NCBI GenBank assembly: GCA_036630325.1
Contig: CP142732.1
Location: 930,001 to 994,000 of the forward strand
Source of the DNA: Vairimorpha necatrix
Lineage: Eukaryota
Length of the DNA: 64,000 bases
Direction: 5' to 3'
Numbering within the stretch: the first letter of the stretch is position 1; every line of letters begins with the position of its first letter. Positions 1,249-53,382 of the stretch are shown one piece after another. Position numbers and translations under genes: made by a program. The notes below the pieces were generated by a model. It was given only the letters and a program-made list of their open reading frames with translations, did no database searches and was not told the origin of the DNA.

Positions 1249-1272
1249 TAAAGAAAACTATTTTATGCAGAG

Positions 1273-1298
1273 AGTTTGTTTGTTAAAACAAACAAACT
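1273..1298. promoter_or_regulatory. Recurrent palindrome, copy 1 (AGTTTGTTTGTT-AA-AACAAACAAACT), with TTTATGCA at 1262-1269
   Basis: Near-identical palindromes at 36286 and 46431; all three lie shortly upstream of a start codon. Confidence 0.55.
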
Positions 1299-1345
1299 AA
1301 TTTTCAAAAAAAAAACTATAAATAAAAAAAAAATCCCATAAATTT

Positions 1346-3643
1346 ATGGAAGAGAAGAGAAGGAAAAAAAATTCAAATCTTTCTTTTGAAATAATAAAAC
1401 AAAGAATAAATAATTATATAAAAGATATGTCATTGATTAATATTGACAAGAGATATTTTATTGACAAAGTTTCCAGTGGTTGGTGTGATGACATGACACC
1501 CAAAGAGACGATTAATTACGTCTGTGATACAGCAGCATCAATGATGACAATTCATCCCGAATATGGAAAATTGGGCTCCAGATTATTAATTTGTCATCTT
1601 CATGAAATGACATTAAATAAATTCAGTGAGAAAGTATTTTACTTACAGAAACACAGAAATCTATTTAATCCGGAGATTTATGATATAATAGTTGTGAATA
1701 AAGATATTATAGACGACATGATTGATTACAGTAGAGATTATAGTTTGACTTTTTTTTCATTAACAAGTTTAATGAAATCATATCTTTTGAAATTTAATGA
1801 TGAAATAGTCGAGAGGCCCCAAGATGTTTTTATGAGAGTGGCTTTACAATTGCACAGAGATGATTGGGAAAAGGTAAAAGAAACATATAATTTGATAAGT
1901 AATTTATACTTTACACATGCCACTCCTACACTTTACAATTCATGCACAAATAAAAACCAACTTGCTAGTTGTTTCTTAATGAATCCTCTTGGGGATTCAA
2001 TAGAAGGAATTTACGACACTTTAAAGCAATGTGCCATAATTTCTAAGTTTTCGGGTGGGATAGGGTTGAATTTACACAGTATTAGGGCCAATGGAGCAGA
2101 TTTAGTATCAACAGGAGGAAAGAGTAGAGGAATAATACCACTTATTCAAGTTTTAAATCATACTAGTAAATATATCAATCAAGGAGGAAGTAAAAGATCT
2201 AGTAGTATTTCGATTTATCTAGAGCCTTGGCATAAAGACATTTTCGATTTCTTAGATTTAAGGAAGAATACGGGGAGTGAAGATATAAGGGCTAGAAATA
2301 TATTTATAGCCTTATGGATTAATGATTTATTTATGGAAAGAGTAGATAAAAATGAAGAGTGGTCTTTATTTTGTCCAAATGAAGCCCAAGGACTTGATGA
2401 TGTCTGGGGCGAAGAGTTCAATAAGTTATATTTGAAATATGAGAAGACTAAGAATAGAACAGTAATAAAAGCAAGGAAGTTATGGAAATCCATAATAGAA
2501 GCTCAGATCGAGACAGGGACTCCTTATATGCTTTATAAAGATACTTGTAATCGACTTAGTAATCAACAGAATCTAGGGACAATCAAATCTTCTAATTTGT
2601 GTGCTGAGATTGTAGAGTATTCAGATAAAAATGAGATCGCAGTTTGTAATTTGGCGAGTATTTGCCTTTCTAAATTCGTCATTAATGGGAAGTTTGATTT
2701 TCAGAAATTATCAGAGATAGTAAAAGTCATAGTGAGAAATCTTAATATTTGTATAGATAAAAATTTCTACCCTGTCAAGGAATGTAAAACTAGTAATTTA
2801 AGACACAGGCCTATTGGCATAGGAGTCCAAGGACTAGCTGATGCATTTGTCCTTATGAGATATCCATTTGACAGTCAAGAAGCCAGAGATTTGAATTTTA
2901 AGATTTTCGAGATGATTTATTTTTCCGCACTCGAAGAGTCGGTAAACCTGGCCAAAGAATTTGGCCCATACGAGACATTTGAGGGTTCTCCATTGAGTAA
3001 AGGAATATTCCACTTTGAGTTATGCCAGAAGAAGATACCAGACATGGAGAAGTGGGAGATATTAAGAAGTAAATTGAAAATGTATGGAGCTAGAAATAGT
3101 CTCTTAGTGGCTCCCATGCCTACTGCCAGTACATCTCAGATATTTAATAATAATGAGTGCTTTGAGCCTTTTACTTCTAATATTTATACTAGAAGGACAC
3201 ATGCTGGTGAGTTCCAAATTGTCAATGAATATTTATTACAAGATTTAATTAAATTGAACTTATGGTCTCATGAGATGAAAAATATGATCATTGAGTTTGA
3301 AGGGTCAATACAGAATATTAAGACTATTCCTCAAGAAATTAGAGATCTTTATAAAACAGCCTGGGAAATTAAGATGAAGCATGTTATTGATCTGGCCGCA
3401 GATCGTCAAATATTTATTGACCAGTCCCAGTCTCTTAATCTTTTTGTGGCTCAGCCCACATATTCTAAGTTAAGCAGTATGCATTTTTATGCCTTTAAAA
3501 ATGGCTTGAAGACTGGAATGTATTATTTAAGGACTAGACCAATTACATCTGCCATAAAATTTACAGTAGATCAGAAATTATTAGAGAAATCAATGAGTAG
3601 TATAAATGATATTGATGAAGTATGTGATGCATGTTCAGCATAA
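1346..3643 (+). CDS. RNR1: Ribonucleoside-diphosphate reductase large subunit
   Basis: N-terminal ATP cone, QLASCF, SSNLCAEI, APMPTAST, KTGMYYLR and C-terminal CxxC (CDAC). Confidence 0.98.
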   Translation: MEEKRRKKNSNLSFEIIKQRINNYIKDMSLINIDKRYFIDKVSSGWCDDMTPKETINYVCDTAASMMTIHPEYGKLGSRLLICHLHEMTLNKFSEKVFYLQKHRNLFNPEIYDIIVVNKDIIDDMIDYSRDYSLTFFSLTSLMKSYLLKFNDEIVERPQDVFMRVALQLHRDDWEKVKETYNLISNLYFTHATPTLYNSCTNKNQLASCFLMNPLGDSIEGIYDTLKQCAIISKFSGGIGLNLHSIRANGADLVSTGGKSRGIIPLIQVLNHTSKYINQGGSKRSSSISIYLEPWHKDIFDFLDLRKNTGSEDIRARNIFIALWINDLFMERVDKNEEWSLFCPNEAQGLDDVWGEEFNKLYLKYEKTKNRTVIKARKLWKSIIEAQIETGTPYMLYKDTCNRLSNQQNLGTIKSSNLCAEIVEYSDKNEIAVCNLASICLSKFVINGKFDFQKLSEIVKVIVRNLNICIDKNFYPVKECKTSNLRHRPIGIGVQGLADAFVLMRYPFDSQEARDLNFKIFEMIYFSALEESVNLAKEFGPYETFEGSPLSKGIFHFELCQKKIPDMEKWEILRSKLKMYGARNSLLVAPMPTASTSQIFNNNECFEPFTSNIYTRRTHAGEFQIVNEYLLQDLIKLNLWSHEMKNMIIEFEGSIQNIKTIPQEIRDLYKTAWEIKMKHVIDLAADRQIFIDQSQSLNLFVAQPTYSKLSSMHFYAFKNGLKTGMYYLRTRPITSAIKFTVDQKLLEKSMSSINDIDEVCDACSA

Positions 3644-8414: not shown

Positions 8415-8989
8415 TCTTCTAATGCTTAAAGTTCTTAATCCACTGCTTAAATTAAAAATATGGTAATAACCTCTCCAAAACATTTAGTGTTAGAATTTGC
8501 AAGCATGACGGTTCCGTCGTATGCTAGATCGTCTATTGTTTGATAAACAGTAGCAAATTCTATTGTATTGACACATAATAGTTCACTGTGGGTTTTCTAT
8601 AATACGTATTGAGGATTTTTATTAACGCAGGGCTATGAAATCATTATATTTTAGACATCTAAATATGACGCCAAGCCTTGGCTTTTTGCATTGTGCTATC
8701 CTAAATACTAGCTACCCTCAACAGGTCAGCTTACTATAACAGACTACAATAAGAAGGTTGTGAGACCTAATTGTATTGATTCGTCAATTTACCGTTATTT
8801 CAGATTAAAATTTCTGCAATATTATGTCCTATAATTTTTTGATACGTTTGCAAATATAAACAAATATTAATTTTACAGATTTATGTTAAATTTTAACCTA
8901 AAAAAATTCATCCCCGACACTGTTCTTTATACCTGTGCTACACACAGGTTTTTTAAAAATAAACGATTATCGAGATATATTTTATAGTC

Positions 8990-15140: not shown

Positions 15141-15292
15141 AAATAATCTTATCATTTAACAATTTTCTATTTTTTAAGATTTAGTGCTTATAACGGGTTT
15201 CATTTGATAGAGACCTAAAAAATATAACATCAAGATTAGAATGTTGTATCACACTGTATCCTCTGAAATTCTAAAATAATTAACATAATACT

Positions 15293-17030: not shown

Positions 17031-19042
17031 ATACTTTTTCTTTAAAAATGAGTACTCTATATTTTTCGAACATTAGAGGATCTTCCTAATTCTATGTAGT
17101 AATTAATGACATGTAAATTATCAACTATATAAAAGGCAACGATTTTTCGATGCTGACAAAATTAACAGGTGAATAAAATTGAAACATAAACATAAACACA
17201 CTCTTAGTCTATATTAAAACAAAGTTTGCCGCTTACTTCACCTCCCAACGCTTTTATATTACGTTTACCCCTTGTTTTTATGTTTAAAAAATTGCCTTAT
17301 AAATATTCTATCATTTATAACCTTTTATATTGCGAAAAAGCGATAAAGTCGCTGTATTACTTTTAATAAATAGATTTTATATATCTTGTTATTTTATTGT
17401 ATATTAAGAGTGAAATTAAATTCTATGTTTTTTTTGGTAAAAGAGGTACCAATATGGCACTTTATACTATATAAAATTGATTATATGAATCAAATAAGAC
17501 TTTCTAACTTCTGTGAATTTACGTTTTTTTAAAATTATTTTGAAAAGACACATACAAATAAAATTCTGCTTTTTCAAAACATAATTTATTTGCAACCAAT
17601 ATGCCCATTAAGCTTCCTATTCGGGGTTCGTACAAATTAAATACATAAGTTTAATCAAATTTGACTTAAAAGCTATAACATATAAAAACTTGTTCCTGTA
17701 GTTTTTTAGTCAAGTCATAAATACAATAAGTATTTATATCATTGATTTACAATTGTTTTGTATAAGTCAAAAGTTGTAGGCAATTGACCCCGATACAATT
17801 TTTTACATCAATTACATTTTTTTGCCAGGGCATTTTTTGCAACAAATTTTCATATATGAACAATAATAAACTTTTATGGCTATATAATGTATAATACTTC
17901 ATTTGAACAAATATTTGAGATTTTTTATATCTCACATTTAGACATATTACTTTTCATTTTTTTTTAAAAGTCTATTTAAAAAATATTATATTCTTAAATT
18001 ATCGGAACTTTTCGATTTTAAAATCAAATAGTATTAAATTTCACGTTTTTTAAACATAAACACGACCTACATGCTAAAGATACAAGTAAATTAGAAAAAT
18101 AAACCTTTTGCATTTAAAATTCAAATCATGAGACGCATAGAATACAAATACCCCATAAGCTTCAAAAAATTATTCAAATTTTTTACCTAATCGAGGAATA
18201 TATAATTCTATACTTTGAAAAGTCTCTATAGAACATTTACTAATATAAAAAAAAATCGACGACGTAAACCAACGTAGAGACAACTTACTGAGTTTACTTA
18301 GCAAATCATACAACTTATGTACCAAATAAAAATTTTTAATTTCCAGTATCAATGCGTATTTTGAATTATAATAGAGATTAGTTTATTTACATTGCAATTG
18401 TACTAAAATTTGTTTTCTTACTGCAATTATCTTCTGATTATAATAAATCAAAAAAACAGGCTATTATAAAATTAAAAATGTGAAAATTTTAATATTACAA
18501 TGTAAATGTATCAATTTTAACGCTCGAATGAATCTTGTACTGGATATAATTAATCTGAATACACTACTAAATTATTCATATATTTTCTATCCCGTATGTA
18601 ATGTTTAGGTAGGATTGTTATTAAGATTTTTTAGTTTAGACCAAGTAAAAATATGTTTGCGCAAGTATTTTTCTTAAGCAAATGAAGTCTCTTGTATAAA
18701 TTGAGCAGACAATGGTACTTAAATCAAGAGTAGCAAAAAGTAGAGTTTTCTGCAAACTTTATTTAAGACCAAAGTAGATTAACCGGGATATTAAGAAAAA
18801 AATAATATGAGTAAAAAATTCATTCTAAAGGCAATTTTGGAGCATACCGTTTATAAATGATGATAAAACTATTAAGTTGTTACATAAAATAATTAGTAAA
18901 GAAGCTCTTAATATAAATTCTAAAAAGTACTTTAATATCGAGAATATACACAAATATTAACTCTGATATTACGCTCTGTAAATAAAAAAAATGCAAAATT
19001 TTTTAAAAAGTTTATTTTTAAATATTTGTTTTTTTATTTATT

Positions 19043-19764: not shown

Positions 19765-20235
19765 ATGGTAAGGGGAAATTTTGTAATTTAGTTAAAACAT
19801 GTTAAAAAGACCAGAAAATTACGTGGACACGTTTCACATGGACATGGAAGAGTAGGGAAGCATAGAAAACATTCTGGTGGCAGAGGAATCTGTGGTGGTC
19901 TTAAGCATATGAAGACTTGGTTCCAGAAATATCATCCAGATTATTTCGGAAAGAGAGGACACAGAATTTACCACAGAAAGAAGAATGACGAATGGGCAAG
20001 ATGGATTTCTGCTGCTAAATTGTGGTCTTTAATTCCTAAAGAGACAAGATACGAGTTAATTGATAAGCAACAAGAAGGTGTCCCAGTGATCAATTGTAGA
20101 GATTTCGGGTATCATGTAGTTGTAGGTGGAGAACTTTCTCTTGATAGGCCAGTCGTAGTCAAAGCAAGGAAGTTTACAGAAGGTGCTAAAGAGCAAATTG
20201 AGAAGGTAGGAGGAAAATGGATAATTTGTCCTTAA
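19765..20235 (+). CDS. RPL27A: 60S ribosomal protein L27a (uL15); exons 19765-19767 and 19792-20235
   Basis: Spliced product [33 protein letters not shown]...[11 protein letters not shown], in frame with track ORF 19909-20235. Confidence 0.95.
19768..19791 (+). other. 24-nt spliceosomal intron GTAAGGGGAAATTTTGTAATTTAG
   Basis: GT..AG immediately after the ATG, with a TAAT branch motif adjoining the 3' AG. The unspliced frame stops at the intron's terminal TAG. Confidence 0.85.
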
Positions 20236-31650: not shown

Positions 31651-31860
31651 AAAATTTTAAGTTATTTTTTAGATTTTTATTTAAAAAATAACAAATGTAA
31701 TAAAAAAAAACAAATTTGAAATAAAAAATTTTAAGTTATTTTTTAGATTTTTATTTAAAAAATAACAAATGTAATAAAAAAAACAAATTTGATAAAAAAA
31801 TAACAAATTTGAAATAAAAAAAACAAATTTGAAATAAAAAAAACAAATTTGAAATAAAAA
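31650..31860. repeat. ~74-bp duplication plus ~20-bp AAACAAATTTGAAATAAAAA units between convergent genes
   Basis: Read directly from the sequence. Confidence 0.8.
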
Positions 31861-34306: not shown

Positions 34307-34504
34307 ATGAATGAAGTTTATTTAATAATTTTAATAGTAAATGTGACTCAAACTATTTTAAAAATTGGATTATTTACTGTTTATATAAACTTTATACATT
34401 ATAAATATGATTTTACACAGGAATATGTAGCTAAAATGTTTTTTTACTGTTATATGACTTTTAGAGTTATTCTTAAAATTTTTATTCTTTCAAAAAAAAC
34501 TTGA
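34307..34504 (+). CDS. Possible small membrane protein
   Basis: 65 aa with two hydrophobic segments; ATG after ACCG; sits in an intergenic gap and overlaps no gene. Confidence 0.35.
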   Translation: MNEVYLIILIVNVTQTILKIGLFTVYINFIHYKYDFTQEYVAKMFFYCYMTFRVILKIFILSKKT

Positions 34505-34597
34505 ATATCAAACAAAACTTCAGTAAAGATTTTTAATATCAAACAAAACTTGAATAAATTTTTCTAAAATGTATAATTTTTACTTACTATTTGTTTT

Positions 34598-35707: not shown

Positions 35708-35869
35708 AGGGACAGAAAAAAAAAGAAAAATTAAAAAGAAGACAAATTTCTTAAAAAAGCAAATTATTTATTTTTTAACCCTTAGAGAAAAACATCAAAA
35801 AAGGGAAAATTAAAAAATGACCAATAAAAATTAAAAAGAATGAGCAAAAAAAAACGCAATAAATTAAAA

Positions 35870-36000
35870 TAAGATTAGAGCATGAAAAAAAAACACATTA
35901 GATAAATAAAAGATCAGAGCATGAAAAAACGGTTAAATTAAATAAGATCAGAGCATGAAAAAACACACTAGATAAATGAAAGATCAGAGCATGAAAAATA
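35870..36000. repeat. Four copies of AAGATYAGAGCATGAAAAA
   Basis: Spaced ~33-38 bp apart, upstream of ESA1. Confidence 0.85.
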
Positions 36001-36285
36001 AATGACAAATGAAATTTAATAAATTACAAGATAAAATAAGTAATATAAAGTATTAGGTTTACAAAATCTTATTTATAATTATCAATTTATAAATTATTTA
36101 CAAAATATTAGGGCTTACATTACATTTTATTAAAATGTCAAACCTATCAGTTGCATCACCATAATAGTCTATTATTCAACTACTATAAAATGATAAACTT
36201 ATTCCTTAATTAAATATAGAAATCATAAATACAATATAACTTCCCATTTAAAAAATAAAATAAATCTTATTTTGCATAAATATAC

Positions 36286-36311
36286 CAGTTTGTTTGTTAA
36301 CAAACAAACTG
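36286..36311. promoter_or_regulatory. Recurrent palindrome, copy 2 (perfect 26-bp CAGTTTGTTTGTTAACAAACAAACTG), with TGCATAAA at 36273-36280
   Basis: ~90 bp upstream of the eIF2B-epsilon ATG. Confidence 0.55.
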
Positions 36312-36403
36312 ACAAATTTAAATATTTAAATAATTTTTAGCATAAACTTTAATTGGTTCCCTGGTTTTATTTATTTTTTCCATCCCCTCCAAATTATAAA
36401 AAC

Positions 36404-37963
36404 ATGGTCAAAAACATACGAAATTTTATAAGAAACAACGACAACATAGTTTTACTTGTAGTTGACTACTACGAGACAAAACAAATTCCTATAGAAATGA
36501 CAAACATTACAGAGAATCTTGCTCTATTCCCTGTGGCAAATATCCCACTTATTGATTATATTATAAAATCCTTACTTTCGAAAAATCTCCAAAATTTTAT
36601 AATTTGTGGATTACAAATTAAGAAAATTGAAGAACATTTAAAATCAATTTATAAAGATCAAATTAATTTTATTAGTATTGATAATCAGAAAAATCTTGGA
36701 GATATTTTTAGATTTTTACATGAATCTGTTTATGATTTAAAAGATTTATTAGTAGTTTATGCTAATCATTATACGAATATTGATTGTAAATTAATATTTG
36801 AAGAACATAAACAAAATGATAATTTGGTTACATTTTTCGTACATGAAAATTTTTCAAATTCCCAAATTAATCATTTTTATGGTACAAAAGATAAAAAGAT
36901 AGTTTTTTATGAAAAATGTATAAATGATAAAATTAATTTTAACAGAGTTAAAGAGACAATAGAGAAATATGAAAATATAGATTTTAATTATAAAGGGAGT
37001 TCTCCAAATTTAGCAGTAATTTCTCCTAAAGTTTTCCAGATTTTTTCAGATAATTTTGATTTTTCTTGTCTTTCAGATTTCTTAGAGTCAATTTTAGCTT
37101 TTAATCCTTTTGATTTAAAGATTGGCTTTTTTGAATATTTTAATTTGTTACCTTCTTTTACACCAGTTTATAGTAGAGAGATATTAACTTTATTTGATTA
37201 TTATAGATTTAATGAAGATAATATTAAGTTACAGATAGAAGATATTTCCCAGTTTTCTCAGAATATAAATTTACTCAAATCTGATAATAATTATTTCTTT
37301 GAGTCTCCAGAAGGCTTTTCTATAGAGAATGTTGTTTTAGGGTATAATAATAAGTTAGAAGATGATTTTTATATAAAAGATTCCTCAGTAGGAAATAGAT
37401 GTGTTATATCTGGGAATATTAAGAAGTGTATAATTTGGGATGATATTTCTATTACAGAAGATTTAGAAGAGAATATTGTATTTGGGACAGGCCATAAGTT
37501 TGATGTTCATTATCTTGAGATAGAAGTGGATATTGAGGAACCAGATATTAAGAAGAATAATTTCTTTGAGGATATAAATGATTATTTAAATGATTTAGAT
37601 ATTAATAGTGATATAGATAATATGTTAAGACAGATAAGTTTAATTAAGATTGTATGGAATGCGTCTAATCTTGATTTTATAGAGGCCTTTGTTATATTTC
37701 TGATTAATCTTATAGACGAGGAAGATATGGAAATGTCGACTATAAATGCGTCAGTCTTTTTCCCGCTTCTACAAGGGAATATTAACAGTACAGAAGATCA
37801 AGAAGAGTTACTTCTTATAATGTATAATCTGACCTTAGACCAAGATATAGAATATAGGAAACAAGTATTATTCAGATTTGGATATCTTTTTATAGAAGAT
37901 GGAATAATAAATAAGAATGTATTGAAGAAATATACCAAGATGATCAAAAAGGGAATATTTTAA
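36404..37963 (+). CDS. GCD6: Translation initiation factor eIF2B epsilon subunit
   Basis: Nucleotidyltransferase-like N-terminus (LFPVANIPLIDY), FSDNFDF, left-handed beta-helix repeats and an acidic W2-like C-terminus. Confidence 0.8.
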   Translation: MVKNIRNFIRNNDNIVLLVVDYYETKQIPIEMTNITENLALFPVANIPLIDYIIKSLLSKNLQNFIICGLQIKKIEEHLKSIYKDQINFISIDNQKNLGDIFRFLHESVYDLKDLLVVYANHYTNIDCKLIFEEHKQNDNLVTFFVHENFSNSQINHFYGTKDKKIVFYEKCINDKINFNRVKETIEKYENIDFNYKGSSPNLAVISPKVFQIFSDNFDFSCLSDFLESILAFNPFDLKIGFFEYFNLLPSFTPVYSREILTLFDYYRFNEDNIKLQIEDISQFSQNINLLKSDNNYFFESPEGFSIENVVLGYNNKLEDDFYIKDSSVGNRCVISGNIKKCIIWDDISITEDLEENIVFGTGHKFDVHYLEIEVDIEEPDIKKNNFFEDINDYLNDLDINSDIDNMLRQISLIKIVWNASNLDFIEAFVIFLINLIDEEDMEMSTINASVFFPLLQGNINSTEDQEELLLIMYNLTLDQDIEYRKQVLFRFGYLFIEDGIINKNVLKKYTKMIKKGIF

Positions 37964-38560: not shown

Positions 38561-41500
38561 TTAAATTGGTGTTATGTTCATGACTTTTTCTTCATCTTCC
38601 TCGTCTAGTTTATTTTTATAAACTAAATATCTTAGATATTCCATGCTTATGGTCTCTTTATAATTTATTATTATCTCTAGATCTCTTACACTGAATGTAT
38701 ATTTCTTCTCTAAATTGTGTCTGTATAAATTCCCTATTAATTTACAGTGGTATTTTATTATCTCTTGATTCTCTGTCCCATACAGTCTCCTGTATAATTC
38801 CAGACTTCTCTTATAATTATATTTATATTTCATATAAATGACTCTACAGTCTTTTATCATCTTCCTGCTTCTACTGTATTCACTTATATAAACAAATTTG
38901 TTCTCTGACTCATCTTCTACTAATTTGTCATATAAGTCTATATTCTTTATTAAATATAAATCTGATCCTCTTTTTAATAAGTCTGAGTATATTTCATTAC
39001 TCTTCTTATCTCCTAGACTTATTATATTCTTGAATTTTATATTCTTCTCTAAGTAGTAGACATAGTCGTCAGTATTAGTAATAATCAGGATATTAGATTT
39101 ATATTTCTTTATATCTTCAAGGTCTAAATGTGTACAGTACTTTATGCATTTATCTAATAAAACATTACCTTCATTATGTTTTATATTTACATTATCAAGA
39201 ATGTTAATATTAAATGTATCTGTAACATCTTTCCTTATAAAATTAGATTCATATGTATCATTCTTACTTATATAAAGATCTTCATTTCGTATAAATTCGT
39301 CGTATACTTTAAATGATAATTTATATCTCGTATATAATATCTTATACACTCTATTAAGCATATCATAATATTCTCTTATTCGTCTTATTCCTTCTAATCT
39401 CTTTCTCTCTAAATCTAATACTCTCTTTGTCCCTAATATCTTATTTATATCTCCAAGTACAATATTTCTTAATAATTCATCCTGTAATTCCTTAATATTT
39501 ATATCTTCCTCATGGGGATATTCCTCTACTACTTCATGAGTGTAACCAATACACTCATAGAAATCAGTATCTTGGTTTATTATTATAGAGAAATCTTTTT
39601 CTCTTATGAGATATTTACAGAGTCTATAAATTTCTTCATCTTGTGTCACATTATTGATCTTTATATTCCTCTTATACTTGTAAATATTAGATATTATCTT
39701 CTTATAATTCTTATCTTTCATACTAGTCTCTAAATAATCCCCAGTGTGGCTACTGGACAGTAAAATCTTATTTATGAATAATTTAGGTAAGACGAGCTCG
39801 AGGCCGAACTCGGACTCAGTCCAATTTGACTTCTCCTCGTTGATCTTTGAGATCAAGTCGTCATATTTTAAGATCTCGTCTTTTAAGTTTGATATTTCTC
39901 TCTGTGTCTTGACTAGTAAAACTTGACACTCAGAATATTCCCTTTTATATTCACTGAGTCTCTTCTCTAATATTTCATATTTCTCTTCTTCTTCTTTTAT
40001 ATTGACGAGTGCTAAGTTGCCCTTCTTTAATAAATCCTTGATTTCTTCCTCTAGTGGTTTAATGTCTTCTTTAAGTCTTTTATATTCATAATTGTGTAGT
40101 ATCCACTCGTATAAAAGATAGCAGACATGAGAAGATTTAGATATTTCAACTTCTTTATCTTTTAATTCTTCAATATCCAAATCAAATATGTCTTCTTCAT
40201 TATCATTAATAAGTTTATAATCATTATTTACGTCATTAATATTGTCATCTTTACTTCTTTGATTATTGCTCTTACTTATGCTGTTGATGTCAAATGTCTT
40301 AAGAAATACTAGGCACTCTTGCCATGTCTTCTTCTCTTTCCTCTTATTTACCATATTATATATTATATTAATAATATAATGCACTGCCTTGGGTGGGCTA
40401 TTCATACTTCTTATCTCTGCTATATTCTTCTTAGTGATCTTATTTATCTTCTTTATACTTTCTTGTAATTTGACTTCTCCCTCTTGTAAATTATTCTTTA
40501 TAAAATTCTTCTTTTTCTCTATTTCATTGTAAAATGCAAGATGTTCTTGCTTTTTATTTTTTATTATATTTTTCTCATACTCGCAGTCCTTTTCTAGTGA
40601 CTGAATTTTTAATATTTTCTGGTTTATTTCTTCTTGATATTTTACTAAAATTAAATCGTGTTTATGTAAATTTATCTTTTTATCTTGTGAAATATTGTGG
40701 AAAATCTTGATTTTCTCTAATCCGTCTAAAATGAATTTGTTGGATTTTATAAACTCTTTGTATGTTGAGACTGTAGTTTGTATAAAATCTACTAATTTAT
40801 AAATATTTTTAAATGATAATAAATCAACATCGTCAATATTCTTAGATGATAATTTAACATCGTCTTTCTTATTGTAATTTTCGTCATTATTAAGTTTACT
40901 GATGTCATTGCGCATTATATCTTCTACTGTTATATAATTATTCATTATAATCTCTTCATTTATACAACATCCACATGTTTTATATTTCAAATTTCTTATA
41001 TATTTCATGAAGCTTGTCTCTTCATTGTTGTCTAAATCTTCTATAAAATATTTCAGGTCTAATAAATAATGTCTTGGTGTAAATAATCTTATAATCATAT
41101 TCTCTTTTATAATTTCATTACTCAGGAGATCTAAACTTGTCGTAAGTATCCCAGTAACTTTCTCTGTGTCGTATTCTATTTTACAAGTCTCATTAAATAT
41201 TTCTATCTTTCTTATATTGTAATTTCTCAAGATCCAATTTTTCCCTGTTAGTCTTCCTCCTAGAAGAATAAAATTGAATTTATTTTCTAGGCAAAATTCT
41301 ATGATTTCTCTGTTACAAATCGGCGAATTCACGTTTAAAATGTCTCTGAAGTATTCCTTGTTAATGTGTAGATTTCTCAATATTTTAAAGCATTCGTAAA
41401 ATTTGATATCTCCTTGTTTATAATATTCATAAATATCTCTATGCGTAATTTTATCATGGTTTTGGATTATTTCAAGATTATTTTGTATTGTCATGTCGTG

Positions 41501-44500
41501 ATCTCCTTGAGACATTTCCAATATTTTTTCATTTGGTCGAATTTGGAGTATTGGACAATTTATTCTTCTCTTGAAATTATAAATATTTAAATCTTCTGAT
41601 CCATTGTAGCTACAAATTATTTTCATATTTCTTTCTTCGTCTTTTACTGTTCCATGCTCATGAAGTTCCTTAATTTCCTGGATGACGTCATCTGACGCTT
41701 TTTCATATTCCTCTAAATAAATTATGTCTTTTTTATAGTTCTTTAAAGATTTGATTTCTCTACAATTAAGATAAAGCACTTCTTCATTCTTGACTATTTC
41801 TTTGAATTTTGATTTTTTCCCTATTCCCATTTCTCCTTCTAGAAATGTAACTGTATTGTTCTTTATATCATTGATATTTACAATATTCTTGTTAGATTGT
41901 GAAATGTCTCGCTCAAAATATATTGTAAATACTCTTGTCAATGAAGCGGGTGTCAATTTACTGATATCATTGGTCTCAAATATAAATCTTACGTTCTCTC
42001 TTATTTTTATTACTTCTCCATTCCTCATACATAATATTTTATTATCATCTAATACTGAGTTTAGATTCTCAATCCACTTGCTTTCTAAAATACAATCATA
42101 AATAATCCATAAATCTCCATTTGTATTCTCTTTTAAGATTCTGTATAAGATATCTTCATCATAGTAGTGGAAAATATAATGATTAATATTTCGAAGATTA
42201 ATCATCTTCCTTAATATTTCTGATTTACCTGACAAACTCTCTCCGAATAATAAAATCCCAGTACTACTAGAAATTCCATATTCAAAAACTTCTTCTTTAG
42301 TCAGAGAAGGAAGATATTCTGACAATAAAGATTTATCTTTATCGCTGAACAGAGCATAATAATAAATTAACATATTCTGAGTCACATCTGAATCTTTAAG
42401 ATTAAATAGGATCGTGTTTAAGGCTCTTAATGAGAAATTATAATGCGAAAGATTTTGACTCTTCTCTTTTAAATTTCTAAAAAGTGTTTTCATTTCTTCA
42501 TTAAAATACACATCAAGTATATCTTCAATATTTGGATTATCAACTCTGATCTCCGCGAAAAGAGACTTAAGCGTAGTCGGCAACTTGTTCCTTCCTAAAT
42601 ATCCAATGTTCAAAGTCAAGAATATCTTGATTTTATCTTTATGTTCTACTAATAAATCACTCAATTTACTCATGACATTAAAGCCGAGTCTATTACACTC
42701 GTCTAAACATAAATACCAATTATTCTTTATACAACCCTGAATGATATTCTCTAATAAAATAATATTAAGATTCTCATTACAACAGAAAACATAAAGTGGT
42801 CTCCCTATACTCTTACAATAATATTTTACTGTCTCTGTCTTCCCTGTACTACTTTCCCCGTACAAAATTAAACCTGGGTAGTAAAAAAGACCGAGTGTAA
42901 TTTTATTGAAAATTGTATTAGTCAATCTCGTGTATAAAATATTTGACGGAGGATAATAAATCATCTCAAAAGGCAAGAGATTTAAACTATCTGTAAAACA
43001 CTCTAAGGAATCTTCAGATTTGGAAATCTGCGGCTTAGGATACAATAAAGTAAAATCTGGGCCAAGAATCTCTTGGTGCTTTTTTATAAATTTGATCTTT
43101 GTTGTCTCTTCAAAATCTAAATCATTAAAGAACTTATATTCATTTATAAAATCATCTAAAAATTGAATCTTGTTCTTGTCTTTCTTATTGAAATAACTTA
43201 TTAAGACATTTTTAAACTCTAATTTAAATCTTCTGTAAAATAATTCAAAATCTTCTGGTGCTTTGAAAATGGAACTTAAATCTAATTTAGTAGAAAAATA
43301 AATCTTCTCTTTTTTGCTTTCTACTCCCAGGCACTCATTATTTTCAATAATGAGTTTATCAATATTGTATATATTCTTCAATAAATCTTCTATGGGCAAC
43401 TTTCCATTTACAAAATTAATTAAATCGTCATTAGATACGAAATATAAATCACTAATCCGGTTTTTTAGATCTTCTATCTTTTTAGTAAATTTTTCTTTGT
43501 AAATTTCTTTTTCTCGTAAAATCCTGTCGAGTTTGAGCTCAATTAGAGGATTTTGTAATTCATATAAAAAATCATCAAAAAGGCTTAGATTTGTGTATTT
43601 GCAAATATCAACAAATAATGAACAAATTTCATTATTCTTAGAAATTAAATCTTCTACTTCTGATTTTAAATCTGAAATTATAGTGAGAAGATTTTGATCT
43701 GTCGAGTCGAGCCCATTATTTATCAGGTTATGATTTAAGAAGTCTAAATCCACATCTAAATCTTGTAATTCGTCACCTACTCTTTCAATGATCTTAAAAA
43801 ATAAGTTTCTATTTTCAAAATTCAATAATTCATCACATGAGTATTTGATCTTCTTAATATCATTTTCTATCTTCGTAAGTTTCTGATAAATTTCCATAAT
43901 CAAGTTTATCTTTCTAGAATATTCTCTCATTTCAAATTCTGAAATATTTTTTATGACGTCACAAATATATTTGTGTTTATCTAAAATATTTATAAATGAT
44001 TTATCTTTATGATTAGACAGTTCTTTGATGAATTGTAATGCGTAAATATTTTCAAAATTTTCAGGTGCATGGAGAAAAAGCCAGTCTAATATTTTTTCTG
44101 ATTTAATATCTGAAAAAATATATTTTGTAAATTTGAGATGATTGCACAATGTCCTTATTTCATTTGTCTTTTTATCTTCATTTATTTTTAAATCCTTAAT
44201 CTTAACATTTAAATCATTTTTGGATTTCAAAATTTCATATAATTTTTTTGATTTTTTGTATTGCGACATCTTATGTTTAAAATCTGAGTAAAATATTTTA
44301 AATTCTGAATAATTGAAATTTTTTTCTTGATTTGATATAAACTTACTAAATGTACAAATCCATTCTTCTGCAAATTTTATAATTTCTGAGAAGGATTCAA
44401 CATGTGGTAAATCAATTACAATATCTTTTTTTAGTATCTTAGTCCCGATTTTATAAATTAATATTGTGTCCTTAATATTGTCAAATGGTCTCTTAATTAT

Positions 44501-46360
44501 GTCCTGATTTTGATAAAAATGTCTTGTAAGTTTCGTTTTCAGAGTGCTCAATTTTGTTGTACATGACAAATTTACATATTGTGGAAGGTCTTTTCTAATT
44601 TTATGTAACTTTTTGAATGTTTTAAATATTTCATAAACATTCATATTTCTGGATTTATAAATTAGATCAATGTATTCAGTTAGTCTAGTATGAGTATCTA
44701 AGATATTGTCAATTATAGATGACAAATTTTTAGTAAATAAATTTTTATCAAAAAATATTTCATGAATCAAATCTAAAATCTTATAAAGATCTTTTTCTGA
44801 GGAAATATTGACTTTTAGATTTTGATCCTTGAAAATATTATTCAGGTACGTGTCTGCTATTCGATTAATTTTACATAAGTGCGGATTTGACATAAGTAAA
44901 AATTTCATGCTTGATTTGTTCATCTCTTCAAATTTTAAAATCATCAATCTGTGTTCAATTAATTTATAGTTTAAATTATTAACTTCTTTTTTTAAATCCA
45001 AATCATATCCTCTGCTAATGTAAAACTTGATTTTCAAATTAATAATCTTCTGTAAAATATTAAATATTTCCTCAATCTCATCTAAAAACATTTCATACTC
45101 AACATCGTCGATAGTTTTAGTAATTTCTATAAAACATTCTATAGATTTTTTTAGTCTTTTAATGCTATCAATCTTATAATCTTTTTTGAAATAATTTAGT
45201 AGGTCATTGAAGAAAGGATCACAATTAATTTCCAAATCATAATCTTTTGTAGTGACCAATATCGAATTTAAAAGGTACTTAATATCTTTCTTTTGATTTT
45301 GTTTGTTTATAATTTCTTCATAATAACATATCTTTCTATTAAGAGTTTCAACGAATAAATTATTTTCTTGTCTAAAGAACAAATGAAGTAACTGCTTGGT
45401 GTATCTAACGATTTCTATAATATGAGAAATTTCTGAAGTTTTAGTTTGTAAAATACAAATCAGGTGCTCATAAATTTTCATCCTTTCTGCTGAAGTATTG
45501 TCTAAAAATTCTTTGTAGGACATAAATATAGAAAAATCCTTCATGAGTGTGATCTGCTGGTTTATATTTTTACAAGAGACAAATTCCCTTTTTAATATCG
45601 GAAGTATCAATTTGATATTTTCTTCGACATTTTTTATTTCTAAAAATAAATCATTTGCTTTATATTTATGTACAATATTTCTCAAAGAATTTATCTGTTC
45701 AAATTTGAGGAATTTTTCTTTGTAAAATTCAATATTTTCGTCATTTGTAGTAAATAATAAAGATTTCTTATTAATTAGATCTAGTAATCTTTTATATTGC
45801 GGAATTTTCTTTGGTTCATTCGTGGCATATTTGAGAATTTTCAGTATATGCTTATGAATATCCAAATTGTACACTTTACATGCATCGAGTATCCCTAATA
45901 TATCAATAGGATTTTTAGATATTAGACAATTTTCAATATCTAAAGTCCGATAAAATAATTCTTCAAAGTCGTAAAGCATCTGATGCCTTTTAGTAGAAAC
46001 ATAATCTAATTTGTCGATTAAATCTTTATAAAAATCCGATTTAAAAAATATTACTAGGTAAGATAAATCAATTAATCGAATAGAACTTGAATTGTAAAAA
46101 TCTTCTATCTGGCGGCGAATATATTCACCTTCTTGCTTGAAATATTTCTTCTTGTTATTTAAATATTCTTTGGAAACTTTTATAGAGAATCCACTTTCTT
46201 GTAAAATTCTTAATTTTATATAAGAAGCATCTGAGAAGTTTAGTAACATCTCTAAAAAAGGTATATCATCTGTAGACTTTGGTATAGAAATTGCAGATTC
46301 TGATTCTGATATCTTTGATACTGTTTTTATAAAATCTTGATAGTTCAATCTATGTATCAT
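38561..46360 (-). CDS. DYN1: Dynein heavy chain, strongly reduced
   Basis: LYFVSNDDL linker, AAA1 GESSTGKTET/LDECNRL/GYLGRNKLP, WIENLNSVLDDNKILC, TPASLTR and stalk/MTBD EIRSMNSPPKAV. Confidence 0.93.
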   Translation of the reverse strand: MIHRLNYQDFIKTVSKISESESAISIPKSTDDIPFLEMLLNFSDASYIKLRILQESGFSIKVSKEYLNNKKKYFKQEGEYIRRQIEDFYNSSSIRLIDLSYLVIFFKSDFYKDLIDKLDYVSTKRHQMLYDFEELFYRTLDIENCLISKNPIDILGILDACKVYNLDIHKHILKILKYATNEPKKIPQYKRLLDLINKKSLLFTTNDENIEFYKEKFLKFEQINSLRNIVHKYKANDLFLEIKNVEENIKLILPILKREFVSCKNINQQITLMKDFSIFMSYKEFLDNTSAERMKIYEHLICILQTKTSEISHIIEIVRYTKQLLHLFFRQENNLFVETLNRKICYYEEIINKQNQKKDIKYLLNSILVTTKDYDLEINCDPFFNDLLNYFKKDYKIDSIKRLKKSIECFIEITKTIDDVEYEMFLDEIEEIFNILQKIINLKIKFYISRGYDLDLKKEVNNLNYKLIEHRLMILKFEEMNKSSMKFLLMSNPHLCKINRIADTYLNNIFKDQNLKVNISSEKDLYKILDLIHEIFFDKNLFTKNLSSIIDNILDTHTRLTEYIDLIYKSRNMNVYEIFKTFKKLHKIRKDLPQYVNLSCTTKLSTLKTKLTRHFYQNQDIIKRPFDNIKDTILIYKIGTKILKKDIVIDLPHVESFSEIIKFAEEWICTFSKFISNQEKNFNYSEFKIFYSDFKHKMSQYKKSKKLYEILKSKNDLNVKIKDLKINEDKKTNEIRTLCNHLKFTKYIFSDIKSEKILDWLFLHAPENFENIYALQFIKELSNHKDKSFINILDKHKYICDVIKNISEFEMREYSRKINLIMEIYQKLTKIENDIKKIKYSCDELLNFENRNLFFKIIERVGDELQDLDVDLDFLNHNLINNGLDSTDQNLLTIISDLKSEVEDLISKNNEICSLFVDICKYTNLSLFDDFLYELQNPLIELKLDRILREKEIYKEKFTKKIEDLKNRISDLYFVSNDDLINFVNGKLPIEDLLKNIYNIDKLIIENNECLGVESKKEKIYFSTKLDLSSIFKAPEDFELFYRRFKLEFKNVLISYFNKKDKNKIQFLDDFINEYKFFNDLDFEETTKIKFIKKHQEILGPDFTLLYPKPQISKSEDSLECFTDSLNLLPFEMIYYPPSNILYTRLTNTIFNKITLGLFYYPGLILYGESSTGKTETVKYYCKSIGRPLYVFCCNENLNIILLENIIQGCIKNNWYLCLDECNRLGFNVMSKLSDLLVEHKDKIKIFLTLNIGYLGRNKLPTTLKSLFAEIRVDNPNIEDILDVYFNEEMKTLFRNLKEKSQNLSHYNFSLRALNTILFNLKDSDVTQNMLIYYYALFSDKDKSLLSEYLPSLTKEEVFEYGISSSTGILLFGESLSGKSEILRKMINLRNINHYIFHYYDEDILYRILKENTNGDLWIIYDCILESKWIENLNSVLDDNKILCMRNGEVIKIRENVRFIFETNDISKLTPASLTRVFTIYFERDISQSNKNIVNINDIKNNTVTFLEGEMGIGKKSKFKEIVKNEEVLYLNCREIKSLKNYKKDIIYLEEYEKASDDVIQEIKELHEHGTVKDEERNMKIICSYNGSEDLNIYNFKRRINCPILQIRPNEKILEMSQGDHDMTIQNNLEIIQNHDKITHRDIYEYYKQGDIKFYECFKILRNLHINKEYFRDILNVNSPICNREIIEFCLENKFNFILLGGRLTGKNWILRNYNIRKIEIFNETCKIEYDTEKVTGILTTSLDLLSNEIIKENMIIRLFTPRHYLLDLKYFIEDLDNNEETSFMKYIRNLKYKTCGCCINEEIIMNNYITVEDIMRNDISKLNNDENYNKKDDVKLSSKNIDDVDLLSFKNIYKLVDFIQTTVSTYKEFIKSNKFILDGLEKIKIFHNISQDKKINLHKHDLILVKYQEEINQKILKIQSLEKDCEYEKNIIKNKKQEHLAFYNEIEKKKNFIKNNLQEGEVKLQESIKKINKITKKNIAEIRSMNSPPKAVHYIINIIYNMVNKRKEKKTWQECLVFLKTFDINSISKSNNQRSKDDNINDVNNDYKLINDNEEDIFDLDIEELKDKEVEISKSSHVCYLLYEWILHNYEYKRLKEDIKPLEEEIKDLLKKGNLALVNIKEEEEKYEILEKRLSEYKREYSECQVLLVKTQREISNLKDEILKYDDLISKINEEKSNWTESEFGLELVLPKLFINKILLSSSHTGDYLETSMKDKNYKKIISNIYKYKRNIKINNVTQDEEIYRLCKYLIREKDFSIIINQDTDFYECIGYTHEVVEEYPHEEDINIKELQDELLRNIVLGDINKILGTKRVLDLERKRLEGIRRIREYYDMLNRVYKILYTRYKLSFKVYDEFIRNEDLYISKNDTYESNFIRKDVTDTFNINILDNVNIKHNEGNVLLDKCIKYCTHLDLEDIKKYKSNILIITNTDDYVYYLEKNIKFKNIISLGDKKSNEIYSDLLKRGSDLYLIKNIDLYDKLVEDESENKFVYISEYSRSRKMIKDCRVIYMKYKYNYKRSLELYRRLYGTENQEIIKYHCKLIGNLYRHNLEKKYTFSVRDLEIIINYKETISMEYLRYLVYKNKLDEEDEEKVMNITPI

Positions 46361-46430
46361 TTAAGGGTACCAGGTCCAATAAATTTATGCAGTTTTATTT
46401 TTTTTTGCATATTTATGTAAAATTAAATTG

Positions 46431-46452
46431 GTTTGTTTGTTAACAAACAAAC
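46431..46452. promoter_or_regulatory. Recurrent palindrome, copy 3 (GTTTGTTTGTTAACAAACAAAC), with TTTATGCA at 46455-46462 and 46384-46391
   Basis: ~70 bp upstream of the dynein ATG (minus strand). Confidence 0.55.
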
Positions 46453-46525
46453 TGTTTATGCAAAAAAGCTTAAATACAGATGATTTTTTATGAAATAGCA
46501 TAAATTTAAAATATTTATTTGGTTC

Positions 46526-49345
46526 TTAGAATTTCTGTTGTATCTTTGACTTATTAGTAAATACGTCTTGTATTTTATTCATCTGTTCTTTAGACATACT
46601 TGATATAACAAGATTCCCTATAGTATTTTGAGAAGCAGAAGCAAATATATTATAAATATAAGGATAAGGATCAAATTTGTCCAAGATAGAAGAGAAGTAG
46701 ATGTCTTCTTCTAGATCGTTATATTCCTCAGATTCATATTCAGCACTTTCTTCAGATTCCTCACTGCTTTTATCTTTCTTAGTGAATAATTTATTCCTGG
46801 CTTCAATAGCATCAGGCAGAGTACAGAAAATTGTAAGAAAACTTTTGGCTATTTTTTCTATATTTAGTCTTACTTGAATATTTGTTTGTGGTAGACTAAA
46901 TAATTTCCCTAAGAATCTCAGACATATTTTTTTATCATGAACCCGACAGAATTCCTTTCTTTTTTCATATAGACGATTAAAGAAAATGCCATCAAAACCT
47001 CTAAGTTTCAATATTTGGAGAGTTTCCAATGGTAAAATGTAGAAGCAGTTCATGATGATTTCCAAGCCATAAATTATTGCAGAAGAATCTTCTTCTAAAA
47101 GTGGAATTGCCTCTGCTATTAATTTTATAAAGATGTCTAATTTTTCAGGATATAAAGAAAATAATTTTTCTCCGACATTTAAAAGTAGAGTTTCCATGAT
47201 CTTGCACCCAGAAATGAAATCTTCGTCGTACATGCCGTCTTCGTCAGCAATACAAAGTTTTACACTAAAAGAGAGTATTTTATCTAGAATATAATTGTCT
47301 AAGACGACTTCTTTCCCATTACAAACCACATTGTCAATGATTTCAGAAATTTCATTAGGATAAACCAAAATGTCCTCAATGGGCAAATTTAAGATCAGAG
47401 TAAATAAGTTCCACATAGAATTATCAAAGGTAGTTATTGAGTAGAAGAAGCAATTTATAATGTCTAGTACTTCCTGGTAAAAGTTGTCTTTTTTTTCTCT
47501 AATAATAATTTCCAAGACATTATAGAAGTTTTGATATAGTCGAAGTGTCAATTCCTGGGGATGATTTTCTGTGTTTATGACAGTCTCGACATTTCTTAAG
47601 AATCCTGAAATGACCATCATTTTGTCGTCTGACTCAGATTGTTCATTTGCTAAATGAGATAAGATCAAATTTCCCATAGACCTGACTAGATCTGGGGCGA
47701 ATACAGCGATTTCATTCGTAAATGACTGCATGATATTGTCCAGAAGATAAGTCAAGGGTTCAATGTCATAATTGGCACTCAAAGTCAAGACACTTTGGAC
47801 AAGTTCGCCAATGTAGACACTGACGTATTTCGTCAGATCCTTGTTACTAATGAAGAAGTTCATAGCCAAAGTTGAGTCCACACTGAGAATTGGATGTTTC
47901 CCCCTGACAATATTGATGACATCACCAATGGCGTCTAATAAATTCTGACTGACAGTGACTTGTTCTTCAATAAAAGACAGTAAATAGCAGGCCTGAGATT
48001 TCATGATCAAATTTCCATATTTTATATCGTAGAAGACATAATTCGTCAGAATATTCTCGAATGAACTTTTCGAAGATTTGAAAATCGTGTGTGTCACGTG
48101 ACTGAGCAGGAAATATATTCCGTAACTTTTCTTCAAATTTTCTGCCACTGGATTTTTCTTAGCATTTTCCAAATTTTGTATAAAAAATTGACAAATCCAA
48201 TTCATCCCTTGCTCGGTGTGTTTTAGAGTCTTCATTATTTCTGTAAAAAGTGTGCCACATTCATTTCTTATGTCATATCCGAAATAATGATATTTTTCTC
48301 TGAGAAATTTCTCTGGGTCATTTTGGAAATCATCTTCTTCATTTTCATTTAATTCATGCATGTATAAAATATATTCTGTAATCAACCAAATCAAGTCTTT
48401 CTCCATAAATTTGTATGTTTCTTTATCAGAGGCGCATAAAGTCATAAATTCCACAGCGTACATTTCTACTGGTTCAGATTTATTACCAAATTTCTCCATT
48501 TTCAATTGAGAAAGAAATACTTCATAAATATAAGAAAATCTATCTGGTACAATTATAAATTTAGACATTTCTTCATTTTTATAAAATTTCTTGACTCCTT
48601 TGTTCGCTGCTTTGAATAAGAAAAATGCTGTCCATTTCTTAGTTTTCATAAAATAGAAATCTGAATTATTTTGAATTTTCAATATTTCTGTAGAAATATT
48701 TATGACGTAAGAGAAAACATCTAATCTTTGTAAAAATTCGGGAATTGAATAATAATTGTAAGATTTAGAAATAAATCTCAAAATTCCTGATGCTGTTTTA
48801 TAGTCATTTTTAGAAATGACAGTATGCAAATTTGTAAGAAGTTCTTGTCCTGAAGTTTTGTAAATTAATTCTAAAATGTCTTCTAAATTGTATTTGATCT
48901 TTTCAGCGTGGAAAATCTGTTCGATGATATTCAAGGCCACAGTAAATTGTAACATGTCGTAAGATTTAATCATATTTGATACATTAGTCAATAATTCATT
49001 AGTGACATTACTTGGTTCTTTATTGTAAATATGAATAAGAATACCATTGTAAGAGACAATATTATTTTCATCAGAAGACATGAAAAAATCTACCAAATTG
49101 GAAATTATGATTTTCTTGGTGTGCTCAAATTCCAAATTTGACCATTCGCTGATCACTGCATTTTTAAAAAATAAAGAAGAAGTCTTTTTGATCATCAAAT
49201 CCGAATCTTTCATAAATGTAGTAGGTAAAGATAAGAGAAAGTTATAATCTTTTTGTAATTGATTTAATCTTTCTTCTGATTTTGTTCTGGCTACTATGTC
49301 AGGATTCAAAGTATTTCTAAAAATTTCTTTTATTTCTGAGTTCAT
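46526..49345 (-). CDS. Importin-beta family karyopherin (Nmd5/Sxm1, importin-7/8-like)
   Basis: IBN_N (TLNPD...SEERL...FFKNAVISEW), KTKKW, DPEKFLR, RVHDKKIC and an acidic C-terminal loop. Confidence 0.85.
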   Translation of the reverse strand: MNSEIKEIFRNTLNPDIVARTKSEERLNQLQKDYNFLLSLPTTFMKDSDLMIKKTSSLFFKNAVISEWSNLEFEHTKKIIISNLVDFFMSSDENNIVSYNGILIHIYNKEPSNVTNELLTNVSNMIKSYDMLQFTVALNIIEQIFHAEKIKYNLEDILELIYKTSGQELLTNLHTVISKNDYKTASGILRFISKSYNYYSIPEFLQRLDVFSYVINISTEILKIQNNSDFYFMKTKKWTAFFLFKAANKGVKKFYKNEEMSKFIIVPDRFSYIYEVFLSQLKMEKFGNKSEPVEMYAVEFMTLCASDKETYKFMEKDLIWLITEYILYMHELNENEEDDFQNDPEKFLREKYHYFGYDIRNECGTLFTEIMKTLKHTEQGMNWICQFFIQNLENAKKNPVAENLKKSYGIYFLLSHVTHTIFKSSKSSFENILTNYVFYDIKYGNLIMKSQACYLLSFIEEQVTVSQNLLDAIGDVINIVRGKHPILSVDSTLAMNFFISNKDLTKYVSVYIGELVQSVLTLSANYDIEPLTYLLDNIMQSFTNEIAVFAPDLVRSMGNLILSHLANEQSESDDKMMVISGFLRNVETVINTENHPQELTLRLYQNFYNVLEIIIREKKDNFYQEVLDIINCFFYSITTFDNSMWNLFTLILNLPIEDILVYPNEISEIIDNVVCNGKEVVLDNYILDKILSFSVKLCIADEDGMYDEDFISGCKIMETLLLNVGEKLFSLYPEKLDIFIKLIAEAIPLLEEDSSAIIYGLEIIMNCFYILPLETLQILKLRGFDGIFFNRLYEKRKEFCRVHDKKICLRFLGKLFSLPQTNIQVRLNIEKIAKSFLTIFCTLPDAIEARNKLFTKKDKSSEESEESAEYESEEYNDLEEDIYFSSILDKFDPYPYIYNIFASASQNTIGNLVISSMSKEQMNKIQDVFTNKSKIQQKF

Positions 49346-49614: not shown

Positions 49615-49806
49615 TTATTGATTTACATTCTTTCTTATAAATTCTGAGAATGAAAAGGGATACTCTTCTTTTTTATTTAACTCTGACAATGGTATATTAA
49701 AAACTGGAATAAAATCTTCTTGTTCTATAAATTCCTCAAGTGTCATTTCCTTGTCATTTTTTTCTTCATTAAATTTTTCCACCTCGAAAAATTCATTCTT
49801 CCCCAT
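49615..49806 (-). CDS. Possible small acidic protein, head-to-head with CCT7
   Basis: 63 aa, purine-rich coding-like strand, GGGGCACAAA-ATG context. Confidence 0.45.
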   Translation of the reverse strand: MGKNEFFEVEKFNEEKNDKEMTLEEFIEQEDFIPVFNIPLSELNKKEEYPFSFSEFIRKNVNQ

Positions 49807-53311: not shown

Positions 53312-53382
53312 CTCTCCCACCGGGACTCGAACCCGGGCCACCAGCGTGACAGACTAGCATGCTACCACTGCACCATAGGAGA
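53312..53382 (-). tRNA. tRNA-Asp(GTC)
   Basis: Acceptor TCTCCTA/TGGGAGA, anticodon arm CTAGT-CTGTCAC-GCTGG and GGTTCGAGTCC T-loop. Confidence 0.95.

Follow-up and report, generated by a model that had tools for sequence, protein, structure and literature searches.

Gene content and host of the window

The window, i.e. the whole 64,000-nt stretch of DNA analysed here, has a GC content of 23-41% in a 2-kb profile, and the genome was taken as 27% GC. Pfam gave assignments for 21 of the 29 ORFs scanned; the assigned set includes dynein, kinesin, RPA1, CCT, CPSF73 and a MYST acetyltransferase, together with LINE-type RT/endonuclease ORFs, a retroviral-type integrase and a transporter:

61055-62764: NTT/TLC ATP/ADP transporter (Pfam)

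The ciliate genetic code (table 6) was considered and dropped, as true genes stop at the first TAA or TAG. Even in table 6 translations, RNR1 and the importin-like gene are free of in-frame TAA and TAG before their natural ends, and the standard code therefore applies. Nearly every ATG in the window is preceded, within ~20 nt, by a CCC(C) box, which is a published microsporidian signal (PMC2803860; PMC11592040). The NTT/TLC transporter, the CCC boxes and the standard code together identify the host as a Nosema/Vairimorpha-type microsporidian.

An invariant dyad in three copies

Two perfect 11-nt arms, GTTTGTTTGTT and AACAAACAAAC, form a dyad that is present three times in the window. The exact 22-mer GTTTGTTTGTTAACAAACAAAC was found twice, and a search allowing a spacer of 0-12 nt between the arms added a third copy, in which they are parted by AA:

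1274..1297, no strand assigned: dyad copy 1, arms at 1274-1284 and 1287-1297, spacer AA
36288..36309, no strand assigned: dyad copy 2, no spacer
46431..46452, no strand assigned: dyad copy 3, no spacer

A preliminary description of this DNA had reported three near-identical palindromes at these places, and all three are confirmed. Copy 2 is palindromic without a mismatch over 26 bp (36286-36311); the AA spacer of copy 1, being asymmetric, breaks the symmetry there. The arms stay perfect while the centre varies (0 or 2 nt). None of 100 dinucleotide-preserving shuffles contained any match, either in the exact 22-mer search or in the 0-12 nt spacer search, in agreement with the earlier claim that the copies are not due to chance.

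The dyad is all-or-none, and its invariance is unusual. The 11-nt arm has six exact occurrences in the window, all within the three dyads, and with one mismatch allowed it has 16 matches in all vs 3.7 expected. No degenerate dyad was found in the window at up to 3 mismatches and spacers of 0-8 nt, every hit being one of the three perfect copies, read either in place or in a shifted register. The dyad is also the sole dispersed word of at least 14 nt present at least three times in the window, the other such words being local tandem repeats. Membership of a longer repeat family, which the preliminary description had named among the findings that would speak against its proposal, was checked in the window, and the dyad is not part of a longer repeat.

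With a spacer of 0-2 nt, the dyad pattern had no occurrence in prokaryote genome contigs or in viral contigs, and was found at four loci in metagenome contigs, with spacers of 1-2 nt. These loci have 39-47% GC and unrelated flanks, and none comes from a relative; two of the four sit within longer (GTTT)n/(AAAC)n tracts. Dyad strings of 14-22 nt were absent from the literature searched, which covered articles without their supplementary files. On microsporidian cis-regulatory motifs, transcription-factor repertoires and co-expression motifs, the library searched held the CCC/AAATTT work alone, and as a gene-specific signal in microsporidia the dyad seems to be undescribed.

Position relative to genes

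Each copy lies in 5' DNA free of ORFs, shortly upstream of a gene:

1346..3643, plus strand: RNR1 (ribonucleotide reductase large subunit), downstream of copy 1; Pfam E = 5e-211
36404..37963, plus strand: eIF2B-epsilon-like gene that follows copy 2; matches solved eIF2B-epsilon chains at E = 1e-14
38561..46360, minus strand: dynein heavy chain, downstream of copy 3; AAA_6 domain of dynein motor

Pfam and the eIF2B-epsilon chain matches uphold the identities first proposed for these genes. The distances to their ATGs, originally put at ~50-90 bp, were measured as 48 nt between copy 1 and the RNR1 ATG (1346), 94 nt between copy 2 and the eIF2B-epsilon ATG (36404) and 70 nt between copy 3 and the dynein ATG (46360, minus strand); from the dyad centre to the A they are 60.5, 105.5 and 81.5. 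The ATGs of all three genes carry a CCC box within ~20 nt. Non-ORF DNA lying within 120 nt 5' of a listed ATG makes up 4.8% of the window, and under uniform placement the chance that all three sites fall there is ~1e-4 window-wide and 2e-3 over non-ORF DNA.

The intergenic regions hosting copies 1 and 2 are divergent, with lengths of 892 and 697 nt, and copy 2 is 580 nt from the ATG (35707) of the divergent MYST acetyltransferase gene. Counting ORFs of at least 30 aa, those overlapping these two regions are only 35-64 aa long, with none of 65 aa or more. Copy 3 is within the 165-nt gap from the stop codon of an importin-7-like gene (46526-49345, minus strand), which is 73 nt from the dyad, to the dynein ATG. 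No tRNA gene and no Rfam family was found near the dyads.

The dyad is present at 3 of the 29 listed ORFs, and the RPA1, kinesin and CLASP-like genes of the window have no copy. The three genes that do have one differ in role: DNA precursor synthesis, translation initiation and microtubule motor.

Companion boxes and flanks

Further short motifs accompany the dyads, on both the gene-distal and the gene-proximal side:

1262..1269, plus strand: TTTATGCA box, 4 nt gene-distal of copy 1
1337..1345, plus strand: CATAAATTT box, 40 nt gene-proximal of copy 1
36273..36280, plus strand: TGCATAAA box, 7 nt gene-distal of copy 2
36340..36346, plus strand: GCATAAA box, 31 nt gene-proximal of copy 2
46381..46391, minus strand: TGCATAAATTT box, 40-42 nt gene-proximal of copy 3
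46455..46462, minus strand: TGCATAAA box, 2 nt gene-distal of copy 3

The octamer TTTATGCA/TGCATAAA is gene-distal of every dyad, just as first described, with gaps to copies 1, 2 and 3 of 4, 7 and 2 nt. Its orientation varies, reading TTTATGCA at copy 1 and, in gene orientation, TGCATAAA at copies 2 and 3. On both strands of the window it occurs 10 times vs 4.8 expected, and its presence within 12 nt of all three dyads has a chance of ~5e-8. Likewise, 6 of the 27 GCATAAA sites in the window are within 100 nt of the three dyads vs 0.28 expected. Six further GCATAAA sites cluster in the NTT/proteasome intergenic region, where there is no dyad, so that the box counts as a motif in its own right which co-occurs with the dyad. 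A CATAAA(T/C)TT box lies gene-proximal of dyads 1, 2 and 3 at 40, 32 and 42 nt. At RNR1 this box, CATAAATTT, overlaps the CCC box (1335-1337) and abuts the ATG, and at the dynein gene the TGCATAAATTT box is followed downstream by the CCC box (46365-46367) and then the ATG.

The preliminary description had also stated that the copies share no flanks or target-site duplications, which it took to argue against a MITE, and the two observations stand. There are no target-site duplications, the flanking 2-4 nt being unlike on the two sides of every copy, and in 11 of 12 comparisons the flanks of different copies were no more alike than shuffles. The exception was RNR1 vs dynein promoters (p = 0.027), which have ...CATAAATTTAT in common at near-equal offset (40 vs 42 nt). 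By eye, the promoters of eIF2B-epsilon and dynein seemed alike over a longer stretch (GCATAAA..TTTA..TTGG..CC..TGGT), but this was rejected when alignment vs shuffles gave p = 0.13. The parts vary in how they are spaced and oriented, which argues against one block having been copied and fits a module of separate sites.

Two other features near the dyads, an E2F-like site and a tandem repeat, were rejected as elements common to the dyad loci, since each is at one copy only. The first, TTTGGCGGGAAA at 1237-1248, precedes the RNR1 ATG by 98-109 nt and stands 25 nt from the dyad on its distal side, and by consensus we take it to be a textbook E2F-type site. GGCGGGAA has no second intergenic instance in the window; a looser E2F-like match, TTTGCCGC, at 17225 falls in transposon-rich DNA free of ORFs, and all others lie within coding sequence. 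The second, at 35828-36002 between the MYST gene and copy 2, has units of ~36-39 and 70 nt containing AGATCAGAGCATGAAAAAA. X1, a closely related public run, has contigs of very high summed depth that pile up on this repeat, which is probably a multi-copy satellite.

The dyad in a close relative

The X1 data consist of contigs only and are ~1% diverged from the window; they leave 44340-46040 uncovered. The contig over 36277-36817 has five differences, all in the coding region, and an identical copy 2, an identity that is uninformative on conservation because the divergence is just ~1%. Four X1 contigs match copy 3 from 46432 onward, with a differing loose end ...ATTTTTTATGCAGTCAC before the match; the four contigs matching the dyad core continue into an unlike flank ending ...TTTATGCAGTCAC. 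One contig matches up to 46451 and then continues GTATTTCTT.... The loose-end flank is absent from the window, and the contigs therefore point to at least one further locus in the close relative with the 20-nt core TTTGTTTGTTAACAAACAAA. At this locus the TTTATGCA box accompanies the core at 4-nt distance, as at copy 1. Should both loose ends come from a single locus, its outermost pair would read C..G in place of G..C, with the symmetry kept.

The pieces obtained from runs X3 and X4 were all spurious, AT-rich and ~40 nt long. A search for the RNR1 loci of relatives returned 51 matches in genome contigs and 23 in viral contigs, all bacterial or viral and none microsporidian, with identities of at most 55%. 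The closest prokaryote RNR1 matches are from Saprospiraceae and Chitinophagales (Bacteroidota), at 52-54% identity over nearly the full length, and RNR1 in other bacteria matches at only ~30-35%.

Likeness to forkhead sites and other known systems

Each arm of all three copies holds one TGTTTGT/ACAAACA, a structurally validated form of the forkhead core TRTTTRY / RYAAAYA, and as far as this heptamer goes the half-sites do resemble forkhead RYAAACA, as had been pointed out before. The heptamers of a dyad are inverted relative to each other, 2 nt apart in copies 2 and 3 and 4 nt apart in copy 1. Microsporidia probably keep forkhead genes; no Pfam match to a forkhead domain was obtained among the 29 ORFs scanned. 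According to the available text of PMC10719092, the FOXP3 forkhead domain sits on TGTTTGT in the same manner as on the consensus TGTTTAC, TGTTTGT is what each FOXP3 forkhead subunit occupies in T3G repeats, and forkhead motifs arranged as inverted repeats (IR-FKHM) bind head-to-head dimers. The dyad looks like such an inverted pair of forkhead-type sites: its heptamers are inverted as in IR-FKHM, and its arms read as short T3G repeats. The two systems differ in that an arm amounts to 2.75 units vs 4-11 repeats in the pull-down series in PMC10719092, and the dyad lacks the long tandem TnG repeat used in FOXP3-type multimerisation. Further differences are that its host is a microsporidian, without a FOXP family on record here, and that its conservation reaches 3-4 nt past the heptamer on each side.

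Among microsporidian promoter signals, the CCC-like/GGG-like and AAATTT-like boxes (PMC2803860; PMC11592040) resemble the dyad as short conserved signals in compact 5' regions. As described in the available text of these sources, however, they are near-universal, 3-12 nt long and within ~20 nt of the ATG, whereas the dyad has 22-24 nt, is 48-94 nt upstream and marks 3 of 29 listed ORFs. A core promoter element would be expected no more than ~20 nt upstream and at most genes; the dyad is neither, and each of the three genes has its CCC box apart from the dyad. The published CCC-like and AAATTT-like signals lie between dyad and ATG (PMC2803860, PMC11592040).

A different parallel is offered by the general regulatory factor sites of budding yeast promoters, and the dyad is like them in being long and upstream of functionally unrelated genes. 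Abf1, Reb1 and Rap1 have long conserved sites ~100 nt upstream of unrelated housekeeping genes, and some of these act at origins. Their sites are unlike the dyad in being other sequences and not perfect palindromes.

A putative upstream promoter site

The reading that we rate highest, at about even chances, is that a dimeric factor, of forkhead type or a general regulatory factor, has its upstream promoter site in the dyad. Starting from the observed sequence, recurrence and position of the dyad, from its co-occurring boxes and from the lack of shared flanks, we infer binding, the kind of factor, the direction of its effect and a placement upstream of the transcription start, as follows. The dyad would act as DNA, as an upstream promoter element, its inverted 11-nt half-sites with TGTTTGT/ACAAACA being bound by a sequence-specific protein, either a dimer or two facing monomers. 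It stands ~30-40 nt upstream of the CATAAA(T/C)TT box and the core promoter, with the CCC box right before the ATG. The one or more GCATAAA/TGCATAAA boxes beside it would probably bind a second factor, and dyad and boxes together would activate the proximally placed gene or hold its promoter open. As these genes are functionally unrelated, the factor may be a general promoter organiser and not a one-pathway switch. Such an organising factor fits as well as a regulon switch does, and a proliferation or cell-cycle programme (RNR1, dynein) may also be at work.

Several points count against the promoter reading: (i) There are no degenerate copies, and ordinary factor sites usually show degeneracy; perfect 22-nt identity is as compatible with recent copying as with an unusually long footprint. 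(ii) The dyad genes have no obvious common pathway, and the other replication and mitosis genes of the window (RPA1, kinesin, CLASP-like) are without a dyad. (iii) The gap between the arms varies (0 vs 2 nt), as does the octamer in its orientation and distance, so that a rigid complex is unlikely. (iv) Forkhead-like A-rich cores are common in a genome of 27% GC. (v) The dyad could be within the 5' UTR.

Alternative explanations

The identity of all arms and the absence of degenerate copies are also what recent copies would show, and the dyad could be a dispersed palindromic micro-repeat spread by copying, consisting of the abutting TIRs of a DNA transposon or resembling a REP element, and functionless or later co-opted; we regard this as rather unlikely. 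TTAA, the target site of some DNA transposons, is at the centre of two copies. The X1 contigs break or continue unlike at the dyad, as they would at a multi-copy sequence, and the genome is transposon-rich, with integrase and LINE-type RT/endonuclease ORFs in the window. MITEs, which are dispersed short inverted repeats like the dyad, have been reported in Nosema, in the same parasite group (PMC4405373). The dyad is unlike them, however: it lacks internal sequence, target-site duplications and shared flanks, and its 22-26 nt are far below the length of any MITE. Neither hallmark of a MITE or DNA transposon, i.e. TIRs with target-site duplication or a shared internal or flanking sequence, was found. 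The available text of PMC4405373 reports no insertion bias towards genes, whereas the dyads are all promoter-proximal, with every copy 48-94 nt before an ATG. Octamer spacing and orientation change between copies, which means that the composite is not one copied block, and the extra AA between perfect arms in copy 1 likewise speaks against copying. To bacterial REP elements the dyad is similar as a palindrome in the range of 20-40 nt, intergenic and in a compact genome. REP elements are imperfect, often clustered and tied to a RAYT transposase.

Were the dyad transcribed, it could function as an RNA element of the 5' UTR (and, for copy 3, also of the importin-7-like 3' UTR), forming a hairpin of 9-11 bp with control over translation, stability or 3'-end formation. 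Folded as single strands, copies 1 and 2 reach -9.6 and -9.9 kcal/mol, with 0 of 200 shuffles as good; copy 3, placed 73 nt past the importin-7-like stop codon, folds weakly (-7.3 kcal/mol, 3 of 200 shuffles as good), and no upstream gene ends near copies 1 and 2. A search for runs recorded as RNA came back empty; an X1 contig, from a run not recorded as RNA, is unbroken from 36277 across the dyad into eIF2B-epsilon coding sequence. Against such an element, microsporidian 5' UTRs are reported as very short, under 7 nt in E. cuniculi as given in the available text of PMC2803860, and a CCC box is directly before each ATG; a start upstream of the dyad would bring upstream ATGs into the RNR1 and dynein leaders. 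Identical arms leave no room for covariation to show, and the dyad had no match in Rfam. We consider an RNA element quite improbable.

A very improbable but broader form of the promoter reading is that the dyad, a perfect T3G-repeat palindrome, is a genome-wide, sequence-defined chromosomal landmark, at which a forkhead-type factor organises promoters and also marks replication origins. For the dyad to be a sequence-defined replication origin or a like element of chromosome function, the alternative raised in the preliminary description, seems highly improbable; its inverted T-rich sites would then load the replicative helicase both ways, possibly marked by forkhead proteins as are early yeast origins. 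ORC sites are quasi-symmetrical, and Fkh1/2 are found at yeast origins. The copies are intergenic and spaced 35 and 10 kb apart, two of the three are at divergent gene pairs, and the symmetrical T-rich dyad has an AT-rich centre able to extrude a cruciform. Three sites are too few to define a spacing, however, the 2-kb profile of composition skew has no evident shift at the sites, and the tight link to ATG distance and to GCATAAA boxes is more simply explained by transcription.

Finally, a chance junction of (GTTT)n and (AAAC)n microsatellite tracts, which the arms (2.75 units of a 4-nt repeat) and two of the four metagenome matches bring to mind, is effectively refuted by the shuffles (0 of 100 with a copy), the equal arm length in all three copies, the confinement of the six exact 11-nt arms to the dyads and the octamer association.

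Significance for microsporidian gene control

Microsporidia have some of the smallest eukaryotic genomes and very few transcription factors, and do not grow outside host cells. In the literature consulted, the promoter signals described for them are confined to near-universal CCC-like and AAATTT-like boxes by the start codon (PMC2803860, PMC11592040). If the promoter reading is true, a long, invariant and gene-selective dyad, accompanied by its boxes, would be a first handle on gene-specific transcription control in this group, usable as bait for its factor and with a regulon predictable from a genome scan. If the landmark reading is true, no origin or general-factor consensus would have been defined in microsporidia before the dyad, and in an extremely reduced genome a regulatory site would have become fixed as an invariant 22-mer. 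For a eukaryote, it would be even more unusual if the dyad turned out to be a mobile micro-palindrome or to mark origins.

Other features of the window

Transposon-rich stretches, with long ORF-poor DNA in them, extend over 5700-19000 and 54694-58300; the retroviral-type integrase ORF is at 15424-16728 and the LINE-type RT/endonuclease ORFs, in pieces, at 54694-57560. Three tRNA genes are interspersed in the window: Leu (5955-6036), Asp (53312-53382) and Met (58634-58706). The apparent start of RPL27A is the ATG at 19765, with a CCCC box before it; right after this ATG is a 42-nt intron (GTAAGG...AG, 19768-19809), and exon 2 is in frame with the listed ORF. A 604-aa ORF has in-frame coding tandem repeats at 4600-5035, with periods of 27 nt and ~54 nt, and its C-terminus weakly matches TFIID 20 kDa (TAF12-like).

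Repeats are also found between genes. Between the convergent genes for a DEAD-box and a DEAH-type helicase, a ~20-nt unit (AAAAAACAAATTTGAAATAA) stands in tandem in 4-5 copies (31700-31860). The NTT/proteasome-alpha intergenic region (62900-63060), with its six GCATAAA sites, has several of them in repeated units of ~50 nt, of the form TTGTTTATGCAT..AAATCTATCTTT, and within these units lies a 12-nt palindrome, TTTATGCATAAA, at 62961-62972. A 45-nt stretch (34484-34528) is skipped in contigs of X1 and X2. One X1 contig goes back 129 nt, from 49763 to 49635, the joint holding 14 other letters, and over 49635-49763 the same contig has a 15-nt insertion behind 49710; this rearrangement, in the intergenic region of importin and CCT, may be a local duplication.
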